Under the pieces are notes generated by a model. The model searched no databases. It was given only the letters and a program-made list of their open reading frames with translations, and was not told where the DNA came from. A stretch of DNA of 37,001 bases from a virus (taxonomy: Duplodnaviria > Caudoviricetes), in IMG/VR virus record IMGVR_UViG_3300012348_000089, positions 1-37,001 of that record. One strand, 5' to 3'. Both the position numbers and the translations under genes were made by a program. This document shows positions 903 to 24,939 of the stretch, piece after piece; positions within the stretch are counted from its first letter, which is position 1, and the number at the start of each line of letters is the position of its first letter.

Positions 903-2924
903 ATGCGGACACGGTTATATTTAGAGGGCATTAACTTAGACTTATACGAAGATATAGATACTACGTTTACTTATGTTATTGACGATGTAAAAGAGTTTGG
1001 AACTCGTAATACTTCATTTAGTAAAACAATAACTATTCCAGGTAATGCAGTAAACAATAAAGCATTTGGGCATATCTTTAACTTAGGTAGTGCAAATGAT
1101 TATACAAACCAAGAGCCAAACATAGGCTACAACTTTAATGCTTCTGTTTCTGCGCGTTGCGCTGTGTTTATAGACCAAGTGCAAGTTTTTAAGGGTTCGC
1201 TAAGACTAATTGAAATAATAGATACAGCAGGTGAGTTAGAGTACCAGTGTTTCGTATTTGGTGAATTAGGTGGATTGTTTTATCAGATAGGCAACAAGCG
1301 TTTGACTGATTTAAATTTTAGTGAGTACGATTTAAATTACAGTTATGCTAATATTATTTCAAGTTGGGATAATATTAACGGCTCAGGAGTTTATTTTCCT
1401 TTGACAGACTACGGAAATGTATCTACAAATAAAGAGGATTTCCAATATACAGCATTTAGACCTGCTTTGTATGTTAAAGAGTATTTAGAAAAGATATTTT
1501 CTCAAACCGATTATACAATTGAAAGTAATTTTTTATTAAGTAGCGTATTTGACAATTTAGTAATTCCGCATAACCAAAAAGAATTAACAAAATATTCAAG
1601 CAACTTTTTTCAAGGCGCACCAGCGTTTACTACTTACAATAGTACGGGCAATCAAATACAATTAACATTTACAGCATCTGCATTAGGTTCATTTACTTTG
1701 CAATCTAGTAATACCGCAATTAGAAACGATGGTTCAACTATAACTACTAATTTAGTTTTCATTGTAACGGGATTATGGGCTCAAGGTGGTAGTGCTACAT
1801 TTAATCTTAGAAAGAATGGCGCAATAATAGCTTCTACTTTTTTAGGTAGCGCATTTAGCGGCAGGTTCTTTAGTAGTACAATAACAGCTGCTAACGAATC
1901 AATCGCTACTAATGATGTTATTACTTTGACTTTAGATTGGTCAACTTCGCAGCCTTACAATTTGCAAGTAAGCGCAGGATCTATTAACTTTCAATCTTCT
2001 ACGCCTACTAGAGTAAGGGTTAATCTAGGCGATGAGATTATTATAAACGATACGATACCACAAGGTATATTCCAAAAAGACTTTGTGCTAAGTATTATAA
2101 AAATGTTTAACCTTTATGTTTACGAATCTTCTTTTGATGAAAAAAAGTTAATAATAACACCTTATGTTAATTTTTATTCAAATGAACAACCACTTAATTG
2201 GACTGATAAGATAGACCGTTCAAGTCCTATTAAGCAAATACCAATGAGTGAATTAAATGCAAGGTACTATCAATATAAGTTTAGAGAAGATAATGATTTT
2301 TACAATGAAGATTATCGTAAAGCATTTAACGAGGGTTACGGAGATAGAATATACGATACAGAGTTTGAGTTTAGTAATGAAACGGATGAACTGCAATTAA
2401 TATTTGCTGCATCGGTATTATACCAAAACGTTGGAACGGATAAAATATATCCTGCTATTTACAAGTTATCTGGAACGACAGAAACGCCAATGGATCATGT
2501 AATGAGAATTGGTAGGGCAAAAAAAATAATTTGTAATCAATACGATATACTTGATACTATAACTGTACTTGGCAGTCCTACAGCTTACGGTTATGTAGGT
2601 CATTTAGATGACCCAAACAATCCAACATCGGATATTAATTTTGGTGCACCAGAAGTATTGCAGTTTACACCAACGGGGCAATATCCAGCGGCTAACTTGT
2701 TTAATAGTTTCCATTCTGGCTACATATCTGAAATTACCGATAAAGACAGTAAGTTAGTAGTAGCCTATGCTTACTTAAATACAGTTGACATAATGAACTT
2801 AAATTTTAGTAAGTTAATTTATGTTGATGGAGTGTTATTTAGATTAAACAAAATTAACGAGTACAATCCGACTGATTTAGGTACTACTCAAATACAATTA
2901 CTCAAAGTAATAAACTTAATATAA
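903..2924 (+). CDS. tail hub/baseplate structural protein
   Basis: 673 aa; N-terminal SFSKTITIPG motif typical of siphovirus tail proteins; lies between Dit-like gene and TMP. Confidence 0.65.
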   Translation: MRTRLYLEGINLDLYEDIDTTFTYVIDDVKEFGTRNTSFSKTITIPGNAVNNKAFGHIFNLGSANDYTNQEPNIGYNFNASVSARCAVFIDQVQVFKGSLRLIEIIDTAGELEYQCFVFGELGGLFYQIGNKRLTDLNFSEYDLNYSYANIISSWDNINGSGVYFPLTDYGNVSTNKEDFQYTAFRPALYVKEYLEKIFSQTDYTIESNFLLSSVFDNLVIPHNQKELTKYSSNFFQGAPAFTTYNSTGNQIQLTFTASALGSFTLQSSNTAIRNDGSTITTNLVFIVTGLWAQGGSATFNLRKNGAIIASTFLGSAFSGRFFSSTITAANESIATNDVITLTLDWSTSQPYNLQVSAGSINFQSSTPTRVRVNLGDEIIINDTIPQGIFQKDFVLSIIKMFNLYVYESSFDEKKLIITPYVNFYSNEQPLNWTDKIDRSSPIKQIPMSELNARYYQYKFREDNDFYNEDYRKAFNEGYGDRIYDTEFEFSNETDELQLIFAASVLYQNVGTDKIYPAIYKLSGTTETPMDHVMRIGRAKKIICNQYDILDTITVLGSPTAYGYVGHLDDPNNPTSDINFGAPEVLQFTPTGQYPAANLFNSFHSGYISEITDKDSKLVVAYAYLNTVDIMNLNFSKLIYVDGVLFRLNKINEYNPTDLGTTQIQLLKVINLI

Positions 2925-4684
2925 TGGCAGAAGAAATTATAGGACTCAAGGTAGTAGTAAACGGGCAAGAAAAGGTAGTTGGTTCGGTTGGTGAGATGCG
3001 TAAGCTACTTAAAGAAGCGCAGTTTGAAGCGTTAAAGCTCTCACAACAGTTTGGTGAAACATCAGCAGAGGCTTTAGCGGCAGCTAAGGGTATCGCAATG
3101 ATGAAAGACCAAATTGCAGACGCTTCGGAAAGAGTGGACTTGTTTGACCCAGGAAAGAAGTTTCAAGTATTTGCCAATGCGGTATCGGCAGCAGGTGGGG
3201 GTATTGCAGCATTGCAGGGCGCTATGGGGTTATTGGGTAGTGAGTCCGAAGATGTACAAAAGGCTTTGCTGAAAGTTCAGTCCGCTCTAGCTTTATCTCA
3301 AGGGCTTTCAACTATTGCAGATGCACAAAAAGACTTTGAAAGATTAAGTGCTGTTATTCAGCAAACTACGCTATTTACTAAAGCAAATGACTTAGCCAAT
3401 AAAGCAACAGCGGGTTCTTTGCGGTTTATGGGCATTAGTGCAGAGGCTTCAAGCGTTGGGTTTAAAGTATTAAAAGGCGCTATCGCGGCAACTGGAATAG
3501 GTGTATTGGTTATACTATTGGGTGAAGCGGTTGCAGCGTTTGAGAACTACACAAGTGCAGCCGAAGATGCAGCTAAGGCTCAGGATGAATTTAACAAAAA
3601 GACGGTTGAATATGCAGATGCTCAGTTAAAGGGGGAGTTAGAGATATTAGATAGAAAGCAAAAGGAGTTGGTTTCTGAGGCTAAAGCTAGAGGTGCTAAC
3701 GAGGCTGAAATATTTGAGATTGAGCAATCAGGTAGACGCTTGAGATTGGCGGCATTAAACAGATATTATGAGCAAGTAAAAGGGGCAGATGATAAAGCGG
3801 CTACTGAGGTTATAAAGCAGATTAAAGATACTGAAACAGATATAACAGTTGCTCAAAACGAAGAACGTGCAAGGCGTAGAAGTAAGCAAATAGCCGACAA
3901 TGAAGCGGCGTTTATTGAGCAGCAAGAAGCATTAAAGAAAAGCATTAACGCTCAGTATCAATTAGAACTAGATGCGTACAACCAAAGAAAGGCGTTAAGG
4001 GATAGAGAGCAAGCTGAGATAATTGACGCAAGTAAAACGCTGACAGAGCAACGTGCAGAGCAAAAGATTAAAGACGAAGAACAGCGCAAGGCAGATGAAG
4101 AGGCTTTAGATAGAATGCGTGAAAGCCAATTAGGCAAAAGCATTGAGGCTCAGGTTGCCGCAAACGCTGCAAGACTAGCAAACGAAAAGCAAACATCAGA
4201 TGCAAACATAGCTATTGCAACTGCCGAAGCAGAATCTAAACGTGTTCTACTTGAAACAACCGCATCGGCTTTAACTAATCTTAGCTTAGTTGCAGGGCGT
4301 GAAACAGTTGCGGGTAAAGCGTTGGCTATCGCATCGTCTATTATAAATACTTATCAAGGTGCTACTAAGGCTTTGGCTCAAGGAGGTATTGCGGGGCCGA
4401 TTGCAGCAGCTGGTATTATTGCAGCTGGGTTAGCATCGGTTAAGCAAATAGTATCAGTTAAAGTACCAGGTGCATCAGGTGGCACTCCGTCGGTGGCAGC
4501 CCCTACACTCAATGCAGGTTCACCACTTAACCCTACAACCATTGCATCTAATCAAGTAACATTAGACCAAAGAAGTATTAACGCTATGGGCAATAGAGCT
4601 ATTAGGGCATACGTTGTAGAGTCTGAAATATCAGCAGCACAACAAAAGGTTAGACGAATACAAAGGCAGACTACGTTTGGGTAA
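2924..4684 (+). CDS. tape measure protein
   Basis: 586 aa Ala/Gln/Glu-rich helical protein with hydrophobic Gly/Ala segments (AIAATGIGVLVILLG; AGPIAAAGIIAAG). Confidence 0.8.
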   Translation: MAEEIIGLKVVVNGQEKVVGSVGEMRKLLKEAQFEALKLSQQFGETSAEALAAAKGIAMMKDQIADASERVDLFDPGKKFQVFANAVSAAGGGIAALQGAMGLLGSESEDVQKALLKVQSALALSQGLSTIADAQKDFERLSAVIQQTTLFTKANDLANKATAGSLRFMGISAEASSVGFKVLKGAIAATGIGVLVILLGEAVAAFENYTSAAEDAAKAQDEFNKKTVEYADAQLKGELEILDRKQKELVSEAKARGANEAEIFEIEQSGRRLRLAALNRYYEQVKGADDKAATEVIKQIKDTETDITVAQNEERARRRSKQIADNEAAFIEQQEALKKSINAQYQLELDAYNQRKALRDREQAEIIDASKTLTEQRAEQKIKDEEQRKADEEALDRMRESQLGKSIEAQVAANAARLANEKQTSDANIAIATAEAESKRVLLETTASALTNLSLVAGRETVAGKALAIASSIINTYQGATKALAQGGIAGPIAAAGIIAAGLASVKQIVSVKVPGASGGTPSVAAPTLNAGSPLNPTTIASNQVTLDQRSINAMGNRAIRAYVVESEISAAQQKVRRIQRQTTFG

Positions 4685-4690
4685 TCCTAT

Positions 4691-4720
4691 TTGACCAACA
4701 AAATACGGGCAACCTATTTA
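4691..4720 (+). promoter_or_regulatory. putative phage late promoter TTGACC-N17-CTATTTA
   Basis: One of 4 copies, each ending 4 nt before a structural-gene ATG (here 4725). Confidence 0.75.
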
Positions 4721-4724
4721 AGTT

Positions 4725-5318
4725 ATGGATTTGCCCGTTTTTTTATTAGATATATCCGAAGACCAACAAGCGGAAACTGAGGTTAATTACATTGCCTTAG
4801 TTGATAAACCCGCTATTAAAATAAATTGGACTGCCTTTAAAGAGGCGCCGCAACGCTTTGCAATAGACAAAGAAAAGCGCATTGTATCTGGTCCTTTAAT
4901 GGTAGCCGATATGAAAATCTACCGTAAGGATGAAGAGTTCGGCGAATATTGGGCGATATTCACAGCCGAAGCCATAGAAAAGATTGCTCAGAAATTCTAT
5001 CAAAAAGGCTTTCAATCCAACGTGAATTTAATGCACGATGGCGGTATGCAGGTTGAGGGCGCTACCATGTTTGAAAGTTGGATAGTGGATAGAAATAATG
5101 GTAAGATGCCTTTAAAGGGTTACGAAGATATTTCAAACGGATCATGGTTCGGCTCGTTTAAAGTAGAAAACGAATCAGTTTGGCAGATGGTAAAAGGCGG
5201 TTTAATTAAAGGATTTAGCGTTGAGGGAATGTTTCAATACAAGCCTAAAAAGCAAGAAATGTCTGAGGAACAAGTGTTAGAAAAGATTAAAAACTTATTG
5301 GCTCAAATTTCTATTTGA
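4725..5318 (+). CDS. prohead protease (XkdF-like)
   Basis: IALVDKPAI, NLMH and GFSVEG motifs; upstream of scaffold and MCP. Confidence 0.8.
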   Translation: MDLPVFLLDISEDQQAETEVNYIALVDKPAIKINWTAFKEAPQRFAIDKEKRIVSGPLMVADMKIYRKDEEFGEYWAIFTAEAIEKIAQKFYQKGFQSNVNLMHDGGMQVEGATMFESWIVDRNNGKMPLKGYEDISNGSWFGSFKVENESVWQMVKGGLIKGFSVEGMFQYKPKKQEMSEEQVLEKIKNLLAQISI

Positions 5319-5344
5319 CCATATTAACAAACAAATACTATTTA
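5315..5344 (+). promoter_or_regulatory. putative phage late promoter TTGACC-N17-CTATTTA
   Basis: Motif copy 4 nt upstream of ATG 5349. Confidence 0.75.
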
Positions 5345-5348
5345 GATT

Positions 5349-5891
5349 ATGGACGCAAAAACAATTTTGAAAAACATTAAGGCTTTATTCTCAGAATTAC
5401 CTGCTGAACCAGTTGCTCCTGCACCAGTTCAAGAACCCGTGCAAGTTGAAATGAAAGAATATTCATTAGCAGATGGAACTAAGGTAATGCTAGATAAGCT
5501 AGAGATTGGCGGAATGGTTACTATCAATGATTTACCTGCACCAGTTGGTGAGCATCTGTTAGCAGATGGTACAAAGATTACTTTGGATGAAGCAGGGGTT
5601 ATTGTAGAGATTGAAGCAGCAGAACCTGCTGAAGTTGTAGCACCAGTTGAAGCAGCTGCACCAGTTGCTCCAGTTCAAATGAAAGATGCAAGAGTAGATG
5701 CTTTACAAGCTGAGGTTAAGAAGTTAAAAGACGGATTTGCACAAATGGTTTCTTTGGTTGAAGCGTTAACCGAAACTCCTGCTGACGAACCTATTGAGCC
5801 TCAAAAAACTCAGTTTGGCGAAGTAATTGAAGCAAAGAAAAATCGCTACAAAGCAATTCAAGAAGTATTAGCAAAACACAAAAATAAATAG
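5349..5891 (+). CDS. capsid scaffolding protein
   Basis: Acidic, Pro/Ala-rich, repeated LADGTK, C-terminal coiled coil; between protease and MCP. Confidence 0.65.
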   Translation: MDAKTILKNIKALFSELPAEPVAPAPVQEPVQVEMKEYSLADGTKVMLDKLEIGGMVTINDLPAPVGEHLLADGTKITLDEAGVIVEIEAAEPAEVVAPVEAAAPVAPVQMKDARVDALQAEVKKLKDGFAQMVSLVEALTETPADEPIEPQKTQFGEVIEAKKNRYKAIQEVLAKHKNK

Positions 5892-5915
5892 TTTAAAATT
5901 TAAAATTAGATAACA

Positions 5916-6863
5916 ATGGCATTTAATGTATCAGCCCTAACCAACTACGTAAAGGAAGACGAAAGGTCGCTCTTTACCTCATCTTTGTTTGACGCAAAGA
6001 CCCAGCAATTAATTCAATCAGCGGGTAACGTTATGGTTGAAGTTAAGTCTGCTGCAACTGTAAACATCATGGACACAGACGCTGCGTTCCAAGACGATAG
6101 CGGTTGTGCTTTCAACGCATCAGGTACAACTACCTTTACTCAGCGTACACTAACCGTTGGTAAAATTAAAGTACAAGAGGCTTTATGTCCTAAAGACTTA
6201 GAAGCTAAGTACTTACAAAAGGCCTTACCAGCAGGTACCAACTATACCGAAATCATTTTTTCTCAAGAGTATTCTGAGCGCAAAGCAGGTAAGATTGCTG
6301 AGCAATTAGAAACCGCTATATGGCAAGGTGATACTGCAAGTACCAATATGAACTTGAATAAGTTTGATGGTTTGCAAAAAATTATTGCTAATGCATCAGG
6401 AGTTATTGACGCAAACACTACTCCATTTGTAAGTGCTACCGTAACAAGCATTACAGTTGCTAACGTATTAAGCGTTATCAAAGGAATTAAGAACGCTATT
6501 CCTGCAAGAGTTAAAGGCAAGGATGATGTTAAATTGTTCTGTGGTTGGGATATTTTTGACCTAATCGTAGATGCTCACGTTAACGCTAACTTGTTTAACT
6601 ACGGCTCTCAAAACATCGGTGACGGTACTTTCACTATTCCTGGCACTCGCTACGTTGTAGAAGCAGTACACGGTTTAGATGGTACTAACGACCTTTACGT
6701 AATGAGAACTAGCAACATGTTCTTAGGAACAGACTTGTTAAGCGACCAAGATCAGTTTGAAATGTGGTACTCTCAAGACGATAGAAATGTTAAGTTTCAC
6801 GTTGGTTTCAAAATGGGTGTACAAATTGCATTCCCTAACGAGATTGTTAAGTTTATCGTTTAA
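5916..6863 (+). CDS. major capsid protein
   Basis: 315 aa; IAEQLETAIWQGD...FDGL motif of HK97-fold capsids; strong codon bias; followed by a terminator. Confidence 0.85.
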   Translation: MAFNVSALTNYVKEDERSLFTSSLFDAKTQQLIQSAGNVMVEVKSAATVNIMDTDAAFQDDSGCAFNASGTTTFTQRTLTVGKIKVQEALCPKDLEAKYLQKALPAGTNYTEIIFSQEYSERKAGKIAEQLETAIWQGDTASTNMNLNKFDGLQKIIANASGVIDANTTPFVSATVTSITVANVLSVIKGIKNAIPARVKGKDDVKLFCGWDIFDLIVDAHVNANLFNYGSQNIGDGTFTIPGTRYVVEAVHGLDGTNDLYVMRTSNMFLGTDLLSDQDQFEMWYSQDDRNVKFHVGFKMGVQIAFPNEIVKFIV

Positions 6864-6869
6864 TTCATA

Positions 6870-6897
6870 GGGTAGGCGTAAAAACCTACCCGTTTTT
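6870..6897 (+). terminator. intrinsic terminator
   Basis: GGGTAGG-loop-CCTACCC followed by GTTTTT. Confidence 0.7.
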
Positions 6898-6911
6898 AAA
6901 AACACAATATT

Positions 6912-7424
6912 ATGGCTTGTGCCTTAACTTCGGGATATACTTTAGACTGCCGAGATTCGGTAGGTGGAGTAATTGAAATGTACTTTATTGAGGCGGGTAA
7001 TGTTACAGCCATTACAGAAGCATCAGGGGTAGTAACAGCAATTACTAAAGCGTCAGGTAAGGTTTTCCGTAAATACGAGCAAGACCAAGACGTAGCATTC
7101 TTTGTTGAAAATTTAAACAGTAACGTGCAAAACGGTACTATTTTCTATCAGCAAGAATTAACCGTTGTAATCAATAAAATGGCAACAGCTATTCGTAACG
7201 AGTTGTTATTGCTTAATAAAAATAGATTGATTGCAGTTGTTAAAGACGCTAACGGTTCTTATTGGTTGTTGGGTAAGACTAGATTTTTACACGCTACTGC
7301 TGGTAACTCAGGAACAGGTACTGCGTCAGCAGACCGTAACGGATATACTTTCACTTACACAGCTTTAGAACCATCTTTAGCGCCATCGGTTAATAGTGGA
7401 ATTATAGCTGGTTTACTAACCTAA
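6912..7424 (+). CDS. major tail tube protein (probable)
   Basis: 170 aa beta-rich protein MACALTSG...DCRDSVGG, NGYTFTYT; follows MCP. Confidence 0.65.
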   Translation: MACALTSGYTLDCRDSVGGVIEMYFIEAGNVTAITEASGVVTAITKASGKVFRKYEQDQDVAFFVENLNSNVQNGTIFYQQELTVVINKMATAIRNELLLLNKNRLIAVVKDANGSYWLLGKTRFLHATAGNSGTGTASADRNGYTFTYTALEPSLAPSVNSGIIAGLLT

Positions 7425-7444
7425 AGTATTACAGATTATTTGCG

Positions 7445-7478
7445 AAGCCTCACCTAAAAAGTGGGGCTTTGTTGTTTT
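7445..7478 (+). terminator. intrinsic terminator
   Basis: AAGCCTCAC-loop-GTGGGGCTT followed by a T-rich tail. Confidence 0.7.
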
Positions 7479-7505
7479 GACCAAAATACAAGCATTTTCT
7501 ATTTA
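7477..7505 (+). promoter_or_regulatory. putative phage late promoter TTGACC-N16-CTATTTA
   Basis: Immediately after a terminator, 4 nt before ATG 7510. Confidence 0.75.
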
Positions 7506-7509
7506 GTTT

Positions 7510-7878
7510 ATGATTAATTTGGTAAAAGGAGTTACTTCTTCAATAATTGTTACGTTAACAGAAAAGCAACTGTTAACTAACCCAAATTACCTTTTTGTGT
7601 TTACGGGGCGTACTACCAATACGGAAACTAAGTTTGTTTTATTAAATAATGCTGATATAAGCCCATCAAAAAGCAGGTATAACAAGTTTAGTTTAAATCA
7701 AGTATTATTTGCTACTTCTAAAATTCAGCAGTACACTTACAACATATACGAACAAACAAGTACAACTAATTTAAATACTGCTGGATTAAATTTATTAGAA
7801 ACAGGCATAATGGTTTTAAGTGAGCCGACGGAAGTATTCACAGAGCCAACAGCCGAAACAGAATTTACTATATTATGA
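7510..7878 (+). CDS. virion structural protein (possible head closure)
   Basis: 122 aa beta-rich ORF in the structural block, ATGA-coupled to the portal. Confidence 0.5.
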   Translation: MINLVKGVTSSIIVTLTEKQLLTNPNYLFVFTGRTTNTETKFVLLNNADISPSKSRYNKFSLNQVLFATSKIQQYTYNIYEQTSTTNLNTAGLNLLETGIMVLSEPTEVFTEPTAETEFTIL

Positions 7879-9872
7879 CAGAACCAAATATTATCATATT
7901 AAACTTTGCAGAAGCAAGACAGCCTGAATATAAGGAAAAAAAAGGCGTTGGATATATGGAATTTGGAGAGCGCAACGACTATCCTAACTATTTGCTAGAA
8001 CTTGCTCAGAAGTCTACTAAGCACGGGGCTATTATTAACAATAAAGCTAAATACATTAGTGGCAATGGTTGGACTACTGAAAGCGGGGTTGAATCACCTA
8101 TCATTAAAAAATTAATGTTAGATGTATTGCTTCGTAAGGTTGTAATAGATATTGAAACATTTGGCGGTTGTTATTTGGAAATAATTTGGTCACAGTTGGG
8201 AAGAACTATTGCTCAGGTAAATCATTTAGATTATACGCGTGTGCGAACCAATCAAGACAATACGCAGTTTTGGTATAAGAAAGAATGGAAGCAGTACGGG
8301 CGCAACGCAGAACAAGCAATCGTATTAAACGCGTTCAATCCTGCGTCAAACGATAAAAAGCAAATACTGTTTGTTAAGGAATATAGACCAGGTTCTAAGG
8401 CTTACCCGTTGCCAAGCTACATTAGTGGCTTAAACTTTATTGAATCGGATATTGAGGTTAGTAAGCACGTTTTAGGTAATGCGGCTACGGGCTTTACGCC
8501 GTCTAAAATGATTACGCTTACTAACGGTGAACCTGCGCCTGATGTGAAGAAGCAGACAACCGATATGTTTCAAAAGCGGTTTACGGGATCAGACGGATTA
8601 AAGTTTATCCTAAACTTTGTACAGAACAAAGACCAAGCACCGATAGTTGAAGACTTGGGCGCATCGGACTTGACTAAAGAAGACTTTACCGCAGTTGACA
8701 CGCTTATACAAAATAACATATTTGCGGCGCATGAAATTACATCACCGTCTTTATTCGGTATTGCGCAACCAGGGAAACTAGGCGGCACAACTGAACTGCG
8801 CGATGCTTACGAGATATTTAAGAATACATACGTAAACGATAAGCAAAGACTAATTGAGGGAGTATTTAATTTATTGGTACGTTATGCGGGTGGTACTGAG
8901 ATATTGAAAATACAGCCAGTTAACCCCGTAGGGTTGCAGGTAACAATGAGCGACTTGATTACAATGGGTGCGCCTAAAGAGTACTTGTATGAGGTTGCGG
9001 GTATTGACCCAACTAAGTACGGTATACAGCCAACTGCAACGGATGCGCCACAAGGCACTAACGAGGCGTTACGTTCGCTTACGGGTAAACAGCATCAGCA
9101 ATTATTGCGAATCATTAGGCAAGTTGGGCAGGGTAAGTTGACCCGTGAAGCCGCAACCGTAATGCTTAAAAGCGCATTAGGGTTAAACGATAGCGAAATT
9201 GAAACCATGTTAGGGGTTGACGAAATACCGCAGCAAATGAGTTCTCAAGAAGCTATTGAAGTTTTTGCAGCATTTGGCGAAAGTAAATCAAACTACAACG
9301 TATTAGCCTCTCGCGTAAGGTTTAACGATAATTCGGAATACGAAGCATTTGCAGAAGTTACGCAGACCGAAAGTAATGTATTAGACCTAATTGCTAAAGA
9401 TAAGCGCATTACCCCTGAAGTGATTGCCGATACACTAAAGTTAACCGTTGGGCGCGTTAATTCGGTTATTGATAGCGCAGTTGAAAAAGGATTAATTGAA
9501 ACCAAAGAAACAGTTGAGGGTAAGGGATTGCAGCGCAATGTTATCATTGAGCGTAAACTCACTCAGCCATTGGCAAAGATTGTTGAGCAAATAAAGCCAA
9601 AAACTACCGAGTTTTTAATTCGTTATAGCTACGAATGGCGGCCTGAAGTGCCAGTGTCAGAAAGAGATACAGCCGAACATCCTAGCCGTTCATTTTGCAA
9701 AAGATTAATGGCATTAGATAAGGTTTACAGCCGGGCAGATATTGAGCAAATCAGCAACCGTTTAGGGTACTCGGTATTTGACCGTCAAGGCGGGTGGTGG
9801 AATGATGATGGCAATACTAAGCCGCATTGCCGGCATACATGGGTAAGTCAAGTAGTAATTAAAAAATCGTAA
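7875..9872 (+). CDS. portal protein with C-terminal winged-HTH and MuF-like extension
   Basis: Portal-like first ~360 aa (FGERNDYP, IFAAHEITSPSLFGI); HTH-like ITPEVIADTLKLTVGRVNSVID; C-terminal SRSFC...GG...HCRHTW. Confidence 0.8.
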   Translation: MTEPNIIILNFAEARQPEYKEKKGVGYMEFGERNDYPNYLLELAQKSTKHGAIINNKAKYISGNGWTTESGVESPIIKKLMLDVLLRKVVIDIETFGGCYLEIIWSQLGRTIAQVNHLDYTRVRTNQDNTQFWYKKEWKQYGRNAEQAIVLNAFNPASNDKKQILFVKEYRPGSKAYPLPSYISGLNFIESDIEVSKHVLGNAATGFTPSKMITLTNGEPAPDVKKQTTDMFQKRFTGSDGLKFILNFVQNKDQAPIVEDLGASDLTKEDFTAVDTLIQNNIFAAHEITSPSLFGIAQPGKLGGTTELRDAYEIFKNTYVNDKQRLIEGVFNLLVRYAGGTEILKIQPVNPVGLQVTMSDLITMGAPKEYLYEVAGIDPTKYGIQPTATDAPQGTNEALRSLTGKQHQQLLRIIRQVGQGKLTREAATVMLKSALGLNDSEIETMLGVDEIPQQMSSQEAIEVFAAFGESKSNYNVLASRVRFNDNSEYEAFAEVTQTESNVLDLIAKDKRITPEVIADTLKLTVGRVNSVIDSAVEKGLIETKETVEGKGLQRNVIIERKLTQPLAKIVEQIKPKTTEFLIRYSYEWRPEVPVSERDTAEHPSRSFCKRLMALDKVYSRADIEQISNRLGYSVFDRQGGWWNDDGNTKPHCRHTWVSQVVIKKS

Positions 9873-9875
9873 CAA

Positions 9876-10454
9876 ATGAGCAGCAATACATTACTTATAA
9901 AGGTTCAGCAAATAAAGGATAGGACTTCTTTACATTCAAACGTGGATGAAAAGATGGTTAAGCCTGATATTAAATACGCTCAAGATGCTTATATCCTACC
10001 AATGTTAGGAACGGCTTTAATGCTGAAACTACAAACAGATATTGAGGGTGCAGGGGTTACGGGTAACTATGAAACTTTATTAAATGATTACATTGTTGAT
10101 GCTTTGGTTTATCACACGTTGGCGGAATCGCCAATGACTTTATCGTATCAACTTTACAATAAAGGGGCGGTTAGAAAAACGGGGGTTGACACAGATACGC
10201 CAAACGTTAACGAGGTTATTCAGTTAGCGGACAAATACCGTAAACGTGCAGAATGGTACACACAAAGACTTGCAGACTACCTATTGGAGAATCACGAACT
10301 GTTTACCGAATATGACAATCCAGGAACGGGCATTGATGTATTTATTCCTGAGGTTGCTCAGTATAATACGCCGTTCTTTTTGGGTGACGATTGCAAATGT
10401 ACTGATGGCAGTTTTGATGTAGCACCAAGTAAATATAAAAAAGGATGCAGATGA
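9876..10454 (+). CDS. head-tail adaptor (probable)
   Basis: 192 aa helical protein following the portal; AQDAYILPMLG motif. Confidence 0.6.
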   Translation: MSSNTLLIKVQQIKDRTSLHSNVDEKMVKPDIKYAQDAYILPMLGTALMLKLQTDIEGAGVTGNYETLLNDYIVDALVYHTLAESPMTLSYQLYNKGAVRKTGVDTDTPNVNEVIQLADKYRKRAEWYTQRLADYLLENHELFTEYDNPGTGIDVFIPEVAQYNTPFFLGDDCKCTDGSFDVAPSKYKKGCR

Positions 10455-10591
10455 GCAATAAGACTTATCATTTAAAGAATCAGGAAAAGTTAGCAAAGTT
10501 TATAGAACAACAAAAAAAGCAGAATGAGCCTAACGTTAAATCAAATAGTAGCAAGAATAAAAGCAATAGCAGAGGCTCACGAACAAATTAA
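10451..10591 (+). CDS. possible small protein (46 aa)
   Basis: ATGA overlap with the adaptor stop; MSNKTYHLKNQEKLAKFIEQ...; overlaps the next gene. Confidence 0.3.
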   Translation: MSNKTYHLKNQEKLAKFIEQQKKQNEPNVKSNSSKNKSNSRGSRTN

Positions 10592-10994
10592 TACGTTTGT
10601 CTTTGGCGACTTAGACGAAGTTTTGCGTAGTGAGGTTGTTTATCCTGCTTGTTTTATGCCTTACCCTAGAGAGCGCGGTAATGGCAGCGATTTGCTTATG
10701 AGTTGCACTTTATTTTTTATGGATAGGGTTATTGTCGGCGGCGGCGAAATAGACAAAACATTTAATGAATTAGAAGTTACTAGCGATATGCGAGAGGTTG
10801 CTAAAGATATTTACGCTCAACTTCGCTACCAAAAGTTTGACCCACGTTGGAATGTTCAAACGGACTTCGCTATTAACCTAGCCAACGAAGCACAACCTGA
10901 TTATTTAGCAGGGGCGCAGTTAGAATTTACTATTAAATTACCGTACAATACAGATAGATGTAGCGTACCAACAACTTACACGTATGGCAATTGA
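10524..10994 (+). CDS. tail terminator protein (probable)
   Basis: 156 aa; VVYPACFM motif, size and position. Confidence 0.55.
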   Translation: MSLTLNQIVARIKAIAEAHEQINTFVFGDLDEVLRSEVVYPACFMPYPRERGNGSDLLMSCTLFFMDRVIVGGGEIDKTFNELEVTSDMREVAKDIYAQLRYQKFDPRWNVQTDFAINLANEAQPDYLAGAQLEFTIKLPYNTDRCSVPTTYTYGN

Positions 10995-11358
10995 TAAACG
11001 GATAGACCAACTTGCAGCAGCCGTACCTGAGTTATCAGACCTATTGGCATTGTACGACCTTAGCAATCCAGGCACTAAAAAGATTGCTATTAGTCAACTT
11101 GTTTCATTGATTAGCCTTGCAAACGGGGTAACAACCATTTGGGCAACCGCTACGGATAGTAACACTTTTTATGACGCACGGCTAATTGGCAGAGCAGTTA
11201 GATTGGTTTTACTAGGCGGAATTGGATCAGGTGAAGTAATTACAACGGGTACGCCAACTGGTAATCAATTGTTATTTGACTCGGCATCAGGAACTTTAAC
11301 AAGACCAATGGGCGTAAATTTTGTAGATGGCGAAGAATTGACAATTCAATATTTATAA
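10984..11358 (+). CDS. virion structural protein (possible fibre anchor)
   Basis: KRIDQLAAA...DLLALYD...TKKIAIS N-terminus resembling fibre-attachment domains; precedes the fibre gene. Confidence 0.5.
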   Translation: MAIDKRIDQLAAAVPELSDLLALYDLSNPGTKKIAISQLVSLISLANGVTTIWATATDSNTFYDARLIGRAVRLVLLGGIGSGEVITTGTPTGNQLLFDSASGTLTRPMGVNFVDGEELTIQYL

Positions 11359-11366: not shown

Positions 11367-13964
11367 ATGAGATACATTTTAATACTTTTATTATTCATTT
11401 CAGGTGCAGCTTCTGCACAATTTGCGCCAACTTCGGCAAAGACTAAATTTGTGAATGGGATTGCTATTGGCAGTAGAGATACAAGCCAATTTACGGCGGC
11501 AGACACTATTGCATTAACCATTGCAAGGGATAGTGTAATGTATTACAGATATAGAGGACTTTGGCGACCTATTGCAACTGGCGGTAATCTAAGCGCATAT
11601 AAGTTGATTTCAGACACTTTGTTCAATAATGGATATACTACAAGGGCAAGACTAAAACAAGGCCTAGATAGTCTTGCAGCTACCAAAGTGAATATAAGCG
11701 ATACGGCTAGTATGTTAGCACCGTACTTTAGGGATAGCGATACAACGGGATTGTTAAACCAAGTAGTTAGAACATTTGGAACGCAGACGATAGGGGGAAA
11801 TAAAACGTTTAGCAATAACATAGTTGTAGGTATTAATACGATTGGTGCAGGGGCAGGTTCGCAATCGGTTTTATTTGGAAATTCAGCATCAGCAAATGGA
11901 ACAAGGTCGGTAGCTATTGGTGCGGAAACATTTGCAGACGGCACAAGAAATATAGCCATTGGTGCGGGTGCAAGTGGCGGTGGCTCATCTTCAAGCGATA
12001 ACACTTCAGTTGGTGCAGGTGCAGGTGCTTCGCTTGGCAATTTTAGCGGAAATACAATGATAGGAAAAGACGCTGGTAGGTTTTATGGCGGTTCTTCGTT
12101 GCCATTAGGACAAGCACAAAACAGTGTATTTGTTGGCGCAAGTACAAAGGCATTAACTAATACAGATGATAATACTATTGTAATTGGACATCAAGCAACA
12201 GGCAACGGCTCAAACACCGTAACGATAGGGAATTCAAGTGTAACAAACAACTACTTTAGCGGTAATATACGAAGCAGCAACGGTACAGCCTTCCTTAAAA
12301 ACATGGCTAACGGTAGTTCATCCGATAGCGTAATAGTTAGCAACAACGGAGAACTTAGGAAGATAGCGCAGTCAAGTATTGTCGGTAGCGGAGGTACAGT
12401 AACCAGTGTAGCAACAAATAACGGTTCGGGTATTACGGGTGGAACAATTACAAGTACGGGTACAATCGCAGCAGATACCACAATTTTAGCAACAAGGGCT
12501 TATGTAGTAGGATTAGACGTAGGTAAAGCAAATACAAGTTTAAATAACGTAAACGGCGTTTTATCTTCTACCTATGGTGGTGCGGGTTCTGTGAATGGTA
12601 TTTTAAAAGCCAATGGTTCAGGGGTGGTAAGTGCAGCAGTAGCGGGAACGGACTATGTTGCGCCAAGTGCTTTGAGTGGGTATTTGTCGTTAGCTGGTGG
12701 GCTTATGACTGGCAACGTTGTTTATAAAAATGCAGCAGGTTCTAATACAGTAAACATTGGTGCTGATGATGGTATGTATGGAGGCGCAAGTGATAACGGT
12801 GGAATTTTTATTTACGGCAATAATAAGTTTATAATTTCTACAAATTCAACAAGGCAAGTTGCGGTTGATGGTAGTGGTAATATGGGAATAGGTACGCTTA
12901 CCCCTGCATACAAATTAGACGTAGTTGGTACAGCTAACTTTACAGGCGCACTAAGCGGCACAAGTTTGTCTATGAGTGGGGCGGGGAGTTTTGGAACGAC
13001 ATTACGTATTGGTGGTGCTTTAAAATCTTGGGATGCTTTTGAACCCGCATTGCAGATAAAAACAATGGCTTTAGGGTCAAGTGGGCAAAGTAATGGTAGG
13101 ATATTTACTAATACATACTATGATGGAAACTATAGATACCAAGGAACAGGTACAGCAACTATGTACGAAGCGGATGGAGGTTTCTTTTGGAGTACAGCAG
13201 CTAGTGGTGTTGCCGATGGATTGATTAGTTGGGTTGAAAGAATGAGGCTAACAACCGCAGGCAATGTATTAATCAAAACCACCACCGACAACGGCACAGA
13301 TGCTTTGCAGGTTAATGGAAGTGGTTTATTCAATGGTCGCATCAGATTAGGTACAAATTTTATAGGGGATATTGGGAATGGTTCAGGAATACTTTTTGGA
13401 ACAACTTCACTTTTTTCAACAGATGGTAGCGACAATCGTGTACCAAAAGACTTAGGTGCATCTTCTTTACGTTGGGGTACATACTACGGTTCAGGTGGAG
13501 ATTTTAGTTCAAGCGTTACAGCTTCTTCATTAATTAAATCAGGTGGTACAAGCGCACAATTCTTAAAAGCAGACGGTAGCGTAGATGGTAGTACATATGT
13601 CAACACATCTTCCACGCAATCGGTAGGAGGGAATAAAACATTTACGAGTTCTACAGTATTTACTGGGGTTAGATTTGCGTATTCTTCTGTTTCTTCAAAT
13701 TATACCTTAACAGACAATGACGATTATATCAATGTGACATCATCTTGTACAATAACATTGCCAACGGCGGTCGGTAGAAGTGGGAAGCGTTATGTTATCA
13801 AGTGCGTAGGCACGGTAACAGCAACAATAGCGTCTACATCAAGCCAAACAATTGATGGCAATGCGGCTTCATCTTACAGCTTTGGGGGTCCAAATTTCAA
13901 TGTACTCATAGTTTATTCAGACGGCTCAAATTGGTTTACAGAAGCATTTACATCAGGTTCTTAA
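11367..13964 (+). CDS. tail-fibre/adhesin-like protein with N-terminal Sec signal peptide
   Basis: 865 aa Gly/Ser/Thr-rich; YadA-head-like SVAIG/NIAIG repeats; two TQ(T/S)(I/V)GGNKTF fibre repeats; GNMGIGT; C-terminal TITLP...TIDG...SDGSNW domain; N-terminus MRYILILLLFISGAASA-Q. Confidence 0.8.
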   Translation: MRYILILLLFISGAASAQFAPTSAKTKFVNGIAIGSRDTSQFTAADTIALTIARDSVMYYRYRGLWRPIATGGNLSAYKLISDTLFNNGYTTRARLKQGLDSLAATKVNISDTASMLAPYFRDSDTTGLLNQVVRTFGTQTIGGNKTFSNNIVVGINTIGAGAGSQSVLFGNSASANGTRSVAIGAETFADGTRNIAIGAGASGGGSSSSDNTSVGAGAGASLGNFSGNTMIGKDAGRFYGGSSLPLGQAQNSVFVGASTKALTNTDDNTIVIGHQATGNGSNTVTIGNSSVTNNYFSGNIRSSNGTAFLKNMANGSSSDSVIVSNNGELRKIAQSSIVGSGGTVTSVATNNGSGITGGTITSTGTIAADTTILATRAYVVGLDVGKANTSLNNVNGVLSSTYGGAGSVNGILKANGSGVVSAAVAGTDYVAPSALSGYLSLAGGLMTGNVVYKNAAGSNTVNIGADDGMYGGASDNGGIFIYGNNKFIISTNSTRQVAVDGSGNMGIGTLTPAYKLDVVGTANFTGALSGTSLSMSGAGSFGTTLRIGGALKSWDAFEPALQIKTMALGSSGQSNGRIFTNTYYDGNYRYQGTGTATMYEADGGFFWSTAASGVADGLISWVERMRLTTAGNVLIKTTTDNGTDALQVNGSGLFNGRIRLGTNFIGDIGNGSGILFGTTSLFSTDGSDNRVPKDLGASSLRWGTYYGSGGDFSSSVTASSLIKSGGTSAQFLKADGSVDGSTYVNTSSTQSVGGNKTFTSSTVFTGVRFAYSSVSSNYTLTDNDDYINVTSSCTITLPTAVGRSGKRYVIKCVGTVTATIASTSSQTIDGNAASSYSFGGPNFNVLIVYSDGSNWFTEAFTSGS

Positions 13965-13977: not shown

Positions 13978-14307
13978 ATGAAACACCTGCTAATCATCAT
14001 CGGTTTAGCGTTCACCTTAAACGCATCAGCACAAAAGGTTGACACCGTCCGCAACGCAATCCAAGTAAAGCCAATACTATTCAATTGGATTACTAAAGAC
14101 AGCGCGTATCAAGTAACATGGGATTTATTCCAAGTAAGCAGAGATACAACGCAAGGCTGCAACTCCTACGTTCAAGTATATGACCGCAAAGGAAAGAAGT
14201 TATACGATAAAAACGTGCCAATTGATAAGATTACACTACACAGCTACCCAAAGGTAGATGCAATTGATAAATACATAGTATTCGCATTAGGATTAGAATT
14301 AAAATAA
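13978..14307 (+). CDS. secreted protein, possible fibre chaperone
   Basis: Signal peptide MKHLLIIIGLAFTLNASA-Q; directly downstream of the fibre gene. Confidence 0.6.
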   Translation: MKHLLIIIGLAFTLNASAQKVDTVRNAIQVKPILFNWITKDSAYQVTWDLFQVSRDTTQGCNSYVQVYDRKGKKLYDKNVPIDKITLHSYPKVDAIDKYIVFALGLELK

Positions 14308-14317: not shown

Positions 14318-14548
14318 ATGGAACACAACAGCCCGGGAGCAAACATAGCAGCCGCAGTAGGCGGTTCAATTTTCGCAGCGTACAGCAGCATTAAGACACT
14401 ATTCCAGCAGCCTATTAGATACAGCTATGAGATTAACTGGCCTGAAACGTTTCAGGTATGTTGGAAAGCAGCAATCGGGGCGGTTGTAGGTCTTGCAGTC
14501 AAAGCCCTTTGGGATAAATTATTTAACACTAAAACAAAAACAAAATGA
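14318..14548 (+). CDS. holin-like membrane protein
   Basis: 76 aa, two hydrophobic segments, basic C-terminus; in the lysis region. Confidence 0.5.
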   Translation: MEHNSPGANIAAAVGGSIFAAYSSIKTLFQQPIRYSYEINWPETFQVCWKAAIGAVVGLAVKALWDKLFNTKTKTK

Positions 14549-14787
14549 AAATTCCTCCTTTTATTACAGAATTAGTACAGCGTTTTGCAAAGAAGAATCC
14601 CAAATTCTTCCAAATAATTCAGGCCATCAGCGCGGCCGTTGCATTTGTGGCTTTCATACCCGATCTTGCCGCCTACCTTGAATTACCGTCACCAGCATGG
14701 TTAGAAATCTTGCACGACAAAGCTATTAAGATTGGAGCGTTAACGGCTATTATTTTGGCGCAGTTGCCGAATGAAACACAGAAATAA
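14545..14787 (+). CDS. holin-like membrane protein
   Basis: 80 aa, KNPKFFQII followed by two TM segments. Confidence 0.55.
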   Translation: MKIPPFITELVQRFAKKNPKFFQIIQAISAAVAFVAFIPDLAAYLELPSPAWLEILHDKAIKIGALTAIILAQLPNETQK

Positions 14788-14789
14788 TT

Positions 14790-14820
14790 TTGCGATATAA
14801 AATATATTGCTTAATATAGC
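14790..14820 (+). promoter_or_regulatory. putative host-type promoter
   Basis: TTGCGA-N16-TAATATAGC, like the copies at 29525 and 35616; variant of the Bacteroidota TTTG/TAnnTTTG consensus. Confidence 0.45.
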
Positions 14821-14823
14821 CAT

Positions 14824-14925
14824 ATGAAATTGAAAGATTGGCTAATACTCGCATCATACGCAACGATATTGTTGTTAGTGGGCGGCTTATTAGGAATAGT
14901 CGTTTCAATCATAGCAAATGCTTGA
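14824..14925 (+). CDS. small membrane protein (33 aa)
   Basis: MKLKDWLILASYATILLLVGGLLGIVVSIIANA. Confidence 0.5.
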   Translation: MKLKDWLILASYATILLLVGGLLGIVVSIIANA

Positions 14926-15088
14926 TTTTATATGTTATTTTGTAACACCTCTAATTATATTTAGTCAAATTTTTGCGCTATACCAATTAAGAAAATTATC
15001 AAGTATGCCATCTAAACCAACAACAACAGAAATATTATTAGGCGTATTCTTTATGTTTACGCTAACCCTTATCGTAATTAATCTATAA
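14918..15088 (+). CDS. small membrane protein (56 aa)
   Basis: MLDFICYFVTPLIIFSQIFALYQ...EILLGVFFMFTLTLIVINL; two TM segments; tiles the gap exactly. Confidence 0.5.
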   Translation: MLDFICYFVTPLIIFSQIFALYQLRKLSSMPSKPTTTEILLGVFFMFTLTLIVINL

Positions 15089-15091
15089 TTT

Positions 15092-15379
15092 ATGGCACAA
15101 TACAGAAAAAAACCAGTAGTAATTGAAGCAATTACTTTTGATGAATTAGTAAAACACGGCTTAGAAAACGGGGCAAACGTAAACAATGGTATGCCTTGGA
15201 GTTGGAACTATAAAGGGCATCCAATCACTCACGAAAATGATGAAACCTATTTAATCCCCACACTTGAAGGTACAATGGTTTTTACAAAAAACGATATGCT
15301 TATTACGGGCGTTAATGGGGAAATATATCCATGTAAAATTGACATTTTTGAAAAGACTTACGAATTAGTAAACCCATAA
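15092..15379 (+). CDS. conserved phage protein (RKKPVVIEA / TLEG / YPCK family)
   Basis: YRKKPVVIEA...IPTLEG...GEIYPCKIDIFEKTYE, a widespread phage motif. Confidence 0.75.
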   Translation: MAQYRKKPVVIEAITFDELVKHGLENGANVNNGMPWSWNYKGHPITHENDETYLIPTLEGTMVFTKNDMLITGVNGEIYPCKIDIFEKTYELVNP

Positions 15380-15382
15380 TCT

Positions 15383-15889
15383 ATGTGTAATGTCATTAAT
15401 CGCAAAGTGGCTTTTGCCGTTCTTTTATCCTTGAGCAGCGGTTGCGGTATTAAATACGCTACTAATAAAGTATTGAGTAACCCCGAAGCTATTGCAAAGG
15501 TGGGGGCGGTTTATGACAACTTAAACCCTAGAGATACTACTGAAAAACTGTTTTTTATTGCGGGGGATAGTATATTTTCAGTTACACACGATACTGCAAT
15601 TATAAAAGATTATATTTTCAATAGAGATACTATTCGCATTTCAACTGTCAAGAAAATCTTGCGGGTTGATACTATTATTCGGCAATTACCCCCCGACAAT
15701 CGTGCAATGGCTCGTCTGCTTGATTCTTTGGGCAAATACACCAACGAATTAAACCAAGCTAAGGGAAGTATTAAAGAGAAAGATAAGGGGCTTAAAACGG
15801 CTAATAATAGGCTTTTATGGATGGCTGGTATAATCTTACTGTTAGGGGTAGTTATTGGGTTGTTGTTGAGGTTTAAAGTAAAATTGTAA
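15383..15889 (+). CDS. lipoprotein with C-terminal TM segment, unimolecular-spanin-like
   Basis: Lipobox LSSG-C at residue 21, coiled coil, C-terminal TM LLWMAGIILLLGVVIGLLL; upstream of the endolysin. Confidence 0.65.
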   Translation: MCNVINRKVAFAVLLSLSSGCGIKYATNKVLSNPEAIAKVGAVYDNLNPRDTTEKLFFIAGDSIFSVTHDTAIIKDYIFNRDTIRISTVKKILRVDTIIRQLPPDNRAMARLLDSLGKYTNELNQAKGSIKEKDKGLKTANNRLLWMAGIILLLGVVIGLLLRFKVKL

Positions 15890-15890
15890 A

Positions 15891-16019
15891 ATGACAAAAT
15901 TCAGCGATATTTTAATAGGGCAGTACAAAGAACGCGGCAAGTGGCAAAGGGATTTGAACATTTACTTCAAACTAAAGCGCTACCAATATTATCATCATAC
16001 TAAATACGGCAGCAAATGA
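15891..16019 (+). CDS. small basic protein (42 aa)
   Basis: MTKFSDILIGQYKERGKWQ...; fills the gap and is ATGA-coupled to the endolysin. Confidence 0.45.
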   Translation: MTKFSDILIGQYKERGKWQRDLNIYFKLKRYQYYHHTKYGSK

Positions 16020-16558
16020 TAAACATTCCTTCATTCGTAAGGGGTTCAATACCCCGTCATATGCAAATAGCTTACTCGTTAATCGGGACAAAAGAGATTG
16101 TCGGCTCAAAACATAACAAGGTCATCCTTGATTGGGCTAAAGACTTGGGGCTTGACCGAATTTACAAAGCAGACGAAACGCCTTGGTGCGGTTTGTTTTT
16201 TGCTTATGTAATGAAAGAAGCGGGGCGAAGAGTTGACCTAAGTACCAAAGATGCGTTTGATTATTTACGAGCGTTAAAGTATCGTGATATGCCAAACGTA
16301 ACCTCTATTTCTAAAGGAGAGGAAAGGTTTGGGGATATACTTATTTTTCAGCGTCCTAGCGGGGGGCATATTGGGTTTTACTCAAGTGAAAGCGAGAACT
16401 TTTTTAACGTGCTAGGGGGTAATCAAGGAAATTCGGTTAACCTAGTTAATATACACAAAAACAGACTTGTAGCTTGTTTGCGTCCTAACTACATATCATT
16501 TAGACCGACAAAATTTATCATTGCTAGTAATGGCAGAGTAAGCACAAATGAAGCGTAA
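16016..16558 (+). CDS. endolysin, CHAP/NlpC-P60-like (TIGR02594-type)
   Basis: DETPWCGLF, GGHIGFY and LGGNQ motifs. Confidence 0.85.
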   Translation: MINIPSFVRGSIPRHMQIAYSLIGTKEIVGSKHNKVILDWAKDLGLDRIYKADETPWCGLFFAYVMKEAGRRVDLSTKDAFDYLRALKYRDMPNVTSISKGEERFGDILIFQRPSGGHIGFYSSESENFFNVLGGNQGNSVNLVNIHKNRLVACLRPNYISFRPTKFIIASNGRVSTNEA

Positions 16559-24258: not shown

Positions 24259-24939
24259 ATGTCAATAAAAAATAAGTTTACTGTAAAATCAATAGATAAT
24301 TTTATTTGTAAAGATTGGCTATTAAACAAGCATTATGCAAAAAGAATACCTCCAATTGAATATGCTTTTGGCTTATTTGAGGGTTCTATATTACAAGGCG
24401 TTACCACCTATGGCACACCTGTCGCTAATTCATTGAGAGAAATATTTTTACCAAATTACAAATTGATTGAGTTAAATAGATTGGTTGTAAACGAAGGACT
24501 AGAAAAAAATGCATTATCTTTTTTTGTTAGCGAATCATTAAATATTATACCTAAACCTTACGCAATAGTATCTTATGCAGACACTTCGCATAATCATCAT
24601 GGGTATATTTATCAAGCCACAAATTGGATTTATACTGGTTTGTCTGCTGAATTTAAGGATTATATGGTTAAGGGTATGGAACATTTGCATGGAGCATCTG
24701 TATTTGATTTAAGCAGAGGCAAGGAAAATAGGGTTGAATGGCTAAAAGAAAAATTTGGCGATAAGTTATACATGAAAGATAGGCCTAGAAAACACCGTTA
24801 TTTTTACTTTATTGGCTCAAAAACGGATTGTAATAAAATGAAAAAACTGCTCCCTTACCCAATTGAAGCCTATCCAAAAGGGGATAATAAAAGATACGAT
24901 GCAAGTTATAAGCCGATTACACAACAGCAATTATTTTAA
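24259..24939 (+). CDS. Mom-like DNA adenine modification enzyme
   Basis: KHYAKR, ELNRL and VSYAD..H.GYIYQATNWIYTG motifs. Confidence 0.75.
   Translation: MSIKNKFTVKSIDNFICKDWLLNKHYAKRIPPIEYAFGLFEGSILQGVTTYGTPVANSLREIFLPNYKLIELNRLVVNEGLEKNALSFFVSESLNIIPKPYAIVSYADTSHNHHGYIYQATNWIYTGLSAEFKDYMVKGMEHLHGASVFDLSRGKENRVEWLKEKFGDKLYMKDRPRKHRYFYFIGSKTDCNKMKKLLPYPIEAYPKGDNKRYDASYKPITQQQLF

Follow-up and report, generated by a model that had tools for sequence, protein, structure and literature searches.

The 37,001-bp window analyzed here is the whole of virus record IMGVR_UViG_3300012348_000089, a complete phage genome with direct terminal repeats. At positions 11367-13964 it encodes an 865-amino acid (aa) mosaic tail-fiber-like protein, P0001, assigned from its homologues and its domain and fold matches. 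As judged from its sequence, P0001 is very probably exported through Sec, with a predicted cut before Gln18, and its base is quite likely to be O-glycosylated in the periplasm at a cluster of Asp-Ser/Thr sequons. There is a good chance that the fiber then docks on the virion, probably through an immunoglobulin (Ig)-like domain of a 124-aa protein encoded just upstream. Held jointly, export, glycosylation and virion docking make a moderately probable reading of these genes. All features described from the 124-aa protein through the lysis genes are on the plus strand.

A predicted secretion leader is conserved in the fiber family

The P0001 gene is co-oriented with its surroundings and is placed between virion genes and lysis genes. 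On translation, the open reading frame (ORF) at 11367-13964 begins with MRYILILLLFISGAASA followed by Gln, as described in an earlier note on this DNA. The start codon is right, with the ATG 8 nt after the stop of the upstream gene and homologues beginning at the same place. A leader of the Sec/signal peptidase I (SPI) type spans aa 1-17 (11367-11417), with predicted cleavage between A-S-A and Gln18. It has a basic n-region, a short hydrophobic h-region, and small residues at -3 and -1. Under the 'Q-rule' of Bacteroidota, SPI cleaves before a Gln that cyclizes to pyroglutamate. The textbook tail fiber has no export leader, a trait that P0001 does not fit.

The leader was called with a hydrophobicity and charge heuristic plus conservation across homologues. 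A search with P0001 gave 206 homologues (E<=0.001), and PF13884 is common among them; 120 were listed, P0001 included, and we surveyed the 119 others. By the heuristic, 107 of the 119 have a leader, a small residue and Gln. Two of the 12 that do not match start inside the hydrophobic stretch, one has a leader at threshold, one is a leaderless fiber of the T4 gp9/10 type, and the remaining eight seem, on visual inspection, to be truncated or to have no leader. In an alignment of 68 homologues, picked mostly for N-terminal matches, Gln is at the site in 65 and there are 50 distinct leaders. These are 16-19 aa long, with Ala, Gly or Ser at -1 in 65/65 and Ala at -3 in 55/65. In four close homologues, 3-6 of 16-17 leader residues are kept, against 44-49 of the 50 residues at the mature start. 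Leaders that diverge while the mature start is conserved are the pattern expected of a cleaved signal. The export proposed in the earlier note is therefore well supported by the leaders, which drift in sequence while the mature start is kept.

A group of long sequon-rich fibers (L011:7493-11131, L012, L015, L019, L020 and L025) carries the leader behind a conserved 40-45-aa extension. The extension is basic and amphipathic, and precedes the hydrophobic stretch and the Ala-Gln junction.

Sequons are enriched at the base of the fiber

Eight Asp-Ser/Thr pairs are clustered at the fiber base (11478-11747), as seen by motif count and per-site conservation. All eight Asp residues in aa 38-125 precede Ser or Thr, just as the earlier note had read them. 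Six are strict sequons, defined as D-[ST]-[AILVMT], at aa 46, 55, 83, 101, 112, and 125. DTS38 and DSD123 are outside the strict motif, with DTS38 fitting the wider motif given in excerpts of PMC12871550. The motif count also found the two further strict sequons noted earlier, DSV320 and DTT370 (12324-12482). Beyond aa 372, Ser or Thr follows 0/25 Asp.

When the mature chain was shuffled 100,000 times, 23 shuffles contained a run of eight consecutive Asp-Ser/Thr. Shuffling aa 18-130 as many times never gave six strict sites (mean 0.76). Counted over the full mature chain, strict sites are in modest excess, with 8 versus 4.0 expected (P=0.039). Among homologues the sequon is conserved in 47/55 at aa 112, 46/65 at aa 55, and 43/53 at aa 125, and in 1/51 at aa 123. 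Strict sites per Asp in the 107 leader-bearing homologues, by tenth of length, are 0.58, 0.49, 0.29, 0.36, 0.32, 0.18, 0.10, 0.09, 0.08, and 0.05. The observed to expected ratio over the first 130 mature residues is 6.2, with control motifs at 0 (E-[ST]-X), 0.6 (N-[ST]-X), and 1.5 (reversed motif). The earlier note had proposed testing whether homologues with a leader also have sequons, and they do: in 23 non-redundant lineages, aa 18-150 contain 92 strict sites versus 14.1 expected, and 22 of the 23 are above expectation. The last 300 aa of the same lineages contain 9 versus 29.4 expected. In 22/23 lineages a six-fold enrichment is limited to the base while control motifs are not enriched, which points to selection for the sites in the fiber family.

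The enrichment also distinguishes the leader-bearing proteins of this genome from the rest, a comparison of the kind that the earlier note had suggested. Strict sites occur at 17 of 59 Asp in three leader-bearing proteins versus 21 of 478 in the 37 others (Fisher P 2.6e-8). Among Gly/Ser/Thr/Asn-rich proteins of the loci we fetched, 10 with a leader contain 59 sites versus 26 expected and five with a delayed leader 82 versus 29. The 25 leaderless proteins, one of which is probably a truncated exported fiber, contain 134 versus 139 expected. We considered whether the distal depletion in P0001 (6.1 expected among its 25 Asp, P 0.0008) reflects glycan avoidance at the tip. This was rejected, as leaderless sister fibers are equally poor (7 versus 23.0).

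In excerpts of PMC12871550, the Bacteroidota O-glycosylation motif carries the modification in non-cytoplasmic proteins only, has nearly complete occupancy, and is functional when engineered. Like P0001, the Bacteroidota O-glycoproteins combine a D-(S/T)-hydrophobic motif with a leader; the substrates named in those excerpts are bacterial only, with none from a phage. Glycosylation of the fiber by the host, the earlier proposal, has statistical support at the fiber base; the distal absence of sequons, which had been listed with it, is not diagnostic. The fiber probably benefits from its glycans without requiring them.

The upstream gene encodes a candidate dock

The earlier note took P0001 for the only fiber-like gene, missing the gene at 10984-11358. 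The first 50 aa of its leaderless 124-aa product match a repeat that recurs in long proteins. Model, fold and profile matches divide the protein into a fiber-type repeat (aa 1-46) and an Ig-like candidate dock domain (aa 47-124; 11122-11355). The latter was modeled with a predicted local distance difference test (pLDDT) score of 74-85. It matches the Mycofy1 head-tail interface chain (Z 8.3), many podophage portal-tail adaptor chains (Z 5-7), and two parts of CBA120 TSP4: 7rej_A 265-332 (Z 7.6, root-mean-square deviation (rmsd) 1.9 Å, 64 aligned) and 7rfv_A 187-249 (Z 7.1, rmsd 2.2 Å, 62 aligned). The XD domains of TSP4 mediate tailspike binding, according to excerpts of PMC8825819.

Like the candidate dock of the 124-aa protein, the CBA120 TSP4 XD, T4 gp10-type and podophage adaptor docks are small Ig-like domains; they are used as attachment sites for separately made spikes. 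The partners of these docks are leaderless and are assembled in the cytoplasm. The likeness is one of fold, and here, unlike in those systems, the domain occurs as a mobile tag, carried by tube, head-completion, and short fiber-repeat proteins. A profile search with the 124-aa protein listed 150 of 154 matches, from which 64 covering the C-terminal domain were picked by match range. None of the 64 listed carriers has a leader, and tail-tube and head-completion proteins with the domain fused to them are among the matches listed. The fiber N-terminus is also shared with phages having another head-tail module. The preceding gene there has a tail-tube fold plus a C-terminal domain homologous to the 124-aa dock domain (hhalign 72%, E 3e-5).

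The candidate dock-binding peptide is a conserved mature N-terminal strand of P0001 (aa 20-35; 11424-11471), with P21, K25, F28, and G31 nearly invariant. A complex prediction with three fiber N-termini (aa 18-135) and three 124-aa proteins scored 0.00; it gave no answer and is counted neither way. Some virion proteins have tandem double dock domains, and some phages have docks on several neck or tail proteins (L062, L073, L085, P0196, P0204, and P0206).

Leader-bearing and leaderless fibers share one slot

To survey gene context we searched with a dock-motif DNA pattern, which returned 38 viral and 55 metagenome loci. Dropping 15 without an in-frame dock ORF and two that were truncated left 76 loci in 25 clusters. 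A protein with a leader and Gln is encoded no more than two genes after the dock in 15 of the 25 lineages. All 15 representatives are above sequon expectation and 12 match the fiber family. In one further lineage, with 12 loci, a leaderless fiber is in the slot, and the in-frame upstream sequence leaves no space for a leader.

Like P0001, these sister fibers (L059, L060, L063, L070, L072, and L076) are encoded behind a homologous dock-bearing gene. They share shaft modules with P0001 (E 2e-9 and 2e-7) and have a similar spacing of N-terminal Lys and Gly. Unlike P0001 they have no leader and few sequons; their phages are also uncultured, and it is Peptidase_S74 and the gene position that suggest a virion role. 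Peptidase_S74 is present in four of the five complete leaderless fibers scanned. Strict sites occur at 7/232 Asp in six distinct leaderless fibers versus 171/648 in 27 leader-bearing downstream proteins. The spanin-like genes of the leaderless-fiber lineage code for 6-7 strict sites per 10-13 Asp. Sequon-rich spanin-like proteins beside sequon-poor leaderless fibers indicate that the host type is the same and that sequons follow the leader.

We built a tree from 32 tube domains and placed its root with six plain tail tubes; it is the tree of the dock gene and not of the fiber. The leaderless lineage is one clade (98/97), nested in a group (94/93) with L002, L009, L010, and L028, whose fibers have an N-terminus that begins like P0001. 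Leader loss and fiber replacement both fit the tree. Four other loci (L051, L054, L091, and L101) have a dock-bearing gene without a long fiber after it while their close relatives L064, L139, and L103 have one, reflecting either fiber loss or assembly collapse.

Leader-bearing proteins annotated as structural in cultured phages

Residues 146-301 of P0001 are 41% identical to gp31 of Cellulophaga phage Ingeline, which itself has a leader and Gln. That protein also matches phi19:1 gp101 and phi18:3 gp85. The records for phi19:1 gp101-104 (KC821607) and phi18:3 gp85-87 (KC821620) carry the note 'structural protein' with experimental tandem mass spectrometry (MS/MS) proteomics. All seven have leaders and six have Gln, with gp104 of phi19:1 being the one without it. 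Similar to P0001, Ingeline_1 gp31-34 (MT732435) and the phi19:1 and phi18:3 proteins are products of late fiber- or lyase-type genes just before lysis-type genes, and their leaders run Met-Lys, a hydrophobic stretch, a small residue, and Gln. Unlike P0001, they are sequon-poor and match neither its N-terminal module nor the profile hidden Markov model (HMM) of the dock. By analogy, the phi19:1 and phi18:3 data support exported proteins ending up with virions, not a need for glycans.

The phi18:1 fibers are leaderless, so the free-virion analysis, as given in excerpts of PMC13288928, cannot test the export idea. In excerpts of PMC8776804, Bartlau et al. (2021) mention in passing 'signaling peptides' on the lyase proteins of Ingeline and Nekkels, with no export route proposed there. 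Our literature search, whose coverage of subscription journals was thin, found no description of an exported-fiber route to the virion.

A proposed route and its alternatives

In the route we propose, Sec would export the fiber, SPI would cut before Gln18, and pyroglutamate would form. Periplasmic O-glycosylation by the host would modify most of the 6-7 sites that fall within mature residues 1-110, and the base glycans may stiffen or shield the fiber base. The folded trimer would wait in the periplasm, as no type IX secretion system (T9SS) domain, lipobox, or membrane segment was found that would take it elsewhere. Specifically, P0001 has no Pfam or NCBIfam match to a T9SS C-terminal sorting domain at E 0.01 or to a YadA-type C-terminal beta-barrel anchor, and our scan for a lipobox or second hydrophobic segment found none. 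The 124-aa protein would join the particle during cytoplasmic assembly, and its dock domain would capture the N-terminal strand of the fiber once the inner membrane is opened at lysis. Late spontaneous attachment has precedents in the T4 long tail fibers and P22 tailspikes.

For the fate of the fiber, the earlier note had offered addition to virions or a role as a cell-envelope or decoy adhesin. Virion addition is favored by the comparative evidence, namely the conserved candidate dock, the leaderless S74 fiber in the same slot, and the MS/MS-annotated leader-bearing proteins; the envelope or decoy role is less favored.

Several observations weigh against this route. The seven MS/MS-annotated proteins are sequon-poor (7 strict sites versus 22.7 expected), and co-purification with virions may be an alternative source of them. 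P0001 has no significant direct match to them (best E 0.24), the link being only via Ingeline gp31, whose 'structural' label, in the passages covered, is not from proteomics. The dock HMM does not match Ingeline gp30 or the tested phi19:1, phi18:3 and phi18:1 proteins (best E 0.05), and the dock fold scores are middling, as Z 7-8 is in a range the tool calls common. In seven of the 25 dock lineages the dock is followed by other genes with no leader-bearing fiber in reach (four are mid-operon among neck and tail genes), and two more are uninformative. A 15-residue ungapped profile of the mature N-terminus, run against 756 leaderless N-termini, placed seven of eight leaderless variants in the top 10, one offset, at low scores (-5 to +4 bits), from one lineage, and for a likeness noticed by eye beforehand. 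The full-length monomer model of P0001 is poor (mean pLDDT 56). The Bacteroidota host is inferred only. GTDB scans with the fiber base and capsid, which detect close relatives only, found no prophage or chromosomal relative, and the capsid and a 673-aa gene product have no match in 50,697 phage records, hence no cultured relative.

The fiber might be exported and glycosylated without joining the virion, serving as a soluble adhesin or decoy at lysis or as a receptor mask in the infected cell, with adsorption by the tail tip alone, for example through the product of the 673-aa gene at 903-2924. Export parts the fiber from the site of assembly, and the unannotated 673-aa and 274-aa genes could hold the receptor-binding part. 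Residues 145-291 resemble the heads of bacterial trimeric adhesins. There is also a leader-bearing, phage-like, cell-bound counterpart: in excerpts of PMC10769870, Caulton et al. describe the Bdellovibrio MAT fibers as mosaic trimeric surface adhesins with a signal peptide. The MAT fibers resemble P0001 in joining a signal peptide to a mosaic, trimeric, phage-like fiber. They differ in being chromosomal predator adhesins with their own conserved 130-aa beta-rich base domain and no virion, and those excerpts report no Bacteroidota sequons. Against a non-virion fiber, P0001 has no anchor or T9SS domain that we could find, and sister phages have an ordinary leaderless S74 fiber in the same slot. 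No tyrosine integrase was found in the 37,001-bp genome, hence there is no evident lysogen to decorate, and MS/MS-based annotation lists leader-bearing proteins of phi19:1 and phi18:3 as structural. We consider this explanation unlikely.

A little less likely still is that the fiber is exported and joins the virion while its sequons are incidental or dispensable. Export would then serve folding, through periplasmic chaperones or a disulfide, or would separate the adhesin from unfinished particles. The sequon-poor MS/MS-annotated proteins fit this account, as do the modest, twofold excess over the whole P0001 chain and the presence of exactly two Cys in P0001 (794 and 813), both within the C-terminal tip domain. 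It does not readily explain an enrichment that is six-fold, confined to the base in nearly all lineages, and missing from the control motifs. Finally, an uncleaved anchor holding the fiber on the cytoplasmic face of the inner membrane, with neither export nor glycosylation, would agree with the established assembly of tailed-phage particles in the cytoplasm and is very improbable given the leader lengths, the residues at -1 and -3, and a sequon enrichment that tracks the leader across fibers and within genomes.

Domain anatomy of the fiber

With its modeled domains, P0001 is a mosaic protein of the trimeric-fiber type encoded in a late operon. The model is confident for the head, a short beta-helix and the C-terminal sandwich described below. 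Past the sequon cluster is a BppL_N-like trimer motif (aa 132-149; 11760-11813), which matches PF18338 at E 7e-5 and 22.7 bits, below the Pfam cut-off of 25.8. It is followed by a predicted YadA-like head beta-roll (aa 145-291; 11799-12239; pLDDT 58-91), called from fold matches and the likeness to Ingeline gp31. The head matches those of UspA1, EibD, and BoaA at VIA Z 9-10, but with an rmsd of 7-8 Å. A short beta-helix near aa 585-664 is like those of the Bdellovibrio MAT fibers Bd1334 and Bd3182 (Z about 6, weak). The C-terminal beta-sandwich (aa 767-865; 13665-13961) is of the T4 gp9/gp10 and TSP4 type, found with Foldseek and at VIA Z 10.4-12.0 (rmsd 1.9-2.6 Å over about 90 residues). Peptidase_S74 (PF13884) has no match anywhere in the genome, though many homologues of P0001 carry one. 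Protein-atlas matches for the fiber base all scored <0.9.

Other exported proteins and the lysis region

Two further leader-bearing, sequon-rich proteins, encoded at 13978-14307 and 15383-15889, had been overlooked in the earlier note. The first is a 109-aa accessory protein with an A-S-A leader end before Gln and three strict sequons per 9 Asp (0.4 expected); it is possibly a fiber chaperone or tip. Its protein-atlas matches all scored <0.9. It weakly matches (hhalign 22%, E 9e-4) a family with leader-bearing and leaderless members. In L052, a leader-bearing fiber is followed by a leaderless member of this weakly related family, a point relevant to whether the 109-aa protein is a chaperone whose co-export is obligatory. 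This small fiber-associated family of mixed leader status was seen at L052:2535-2795 and L072:9229-9573 and in L051, L054, and L067.

The second resembles a unimolecular spanin, with a lipobox and a C-terminal hydrophobic segment. It has six strict sequons per 10 Asp (0.5 expected) and served as an internal positive control for periplasmic location. It belongs to a putative lysis region (14318-16558) with two small hydrophobic holin-like genes and an endolysin-like gene (16016-16558; phrog_1259 E 6e-23, phrog_21357 E 3e-5).

Genome, host and neighboring genes

Structural genes in the window include those for a terminase, a portal, a prohead protease, and capsid-like and tape-measure-like proteins. 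Searches of PDB sequences with the capsid and 673-aa genes returned nothing useful. A Shine-Dalgarno-like word is present at 0/32 gene starts and A is at -3 in 18/32, a pattern we take to be a Bacteroidota signature. Of the 17 phage records with a match to the fiber, 13 are from phages that infect Cellulophaga or Flavobacterium. The Bacteroidota promoter word TANNTTTG is not enriched in the genome (43 versus 55.6 expected).

Gene order in window positions 1-11358 is odd, with the 673-aa and tape-measure-like genes before the protease and capsid and the portal after the probable tail tube. The order is retained in L005-L008, L033, L034, L041, and L043. The portal (7875-9872) has a 300-aa C-terminal extension with a winged helix (MarR_2 and HTH_24 above cut-off) and a CxxC/HCxH-like end. 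A Mom-family DNA-modification gene (PF25680, E 7e-35) is at 24259-24939. Directly before the terminase genes, at 30477-32941, a hexapeptide acetyltransferase-like gene lies between two glycosyltransferase-like genes (phrog_7162 E 1e-58; weak PF00535). The products are leaderless and could act on virion proteins, host surface glycans, or the lipid-linked O-glycan.

Implications for tailed-phage assembly

Tailed phages are generally assumed to produce and assemble their parts in the cytoplasm. The parts described here are of known kinds; the proposed export-and-dock route of the fiber is not described in the literature that we searched. There is about an even chance that many Bacteroidota tailed phages split assembly across the inner membrane. 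Cytoplasmic particles would bear an empty, transplantable Ig-like dock, host-glycosylated fibers would mature in the periplasm, and the two would join only at lysis. One dock would take exported or cytoplasmic fibers, and the virion would carry a glycan stamp of its host species.

The pair of exported and leaderless fibers behind homologous docks, together with the cultured phages phi19:1 and phi18:3, makes the idea directly testable. Such fiber genes may be misannotated as secreted host-like proteins, and if the idea is true their study would need periplasmic expression. A fiber following this route would also add a second compartment, the periplasm, to the assembly pathway of tailed phages and place phage proteins among the substrates of the Bacteroidota O-glycosylation system, the function of which is largely unknown according to excerpts of a 2025 review (PMC12871550). 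As the outer glycan is species-specific, virions could bear a host-dependent, non-genetic mark.

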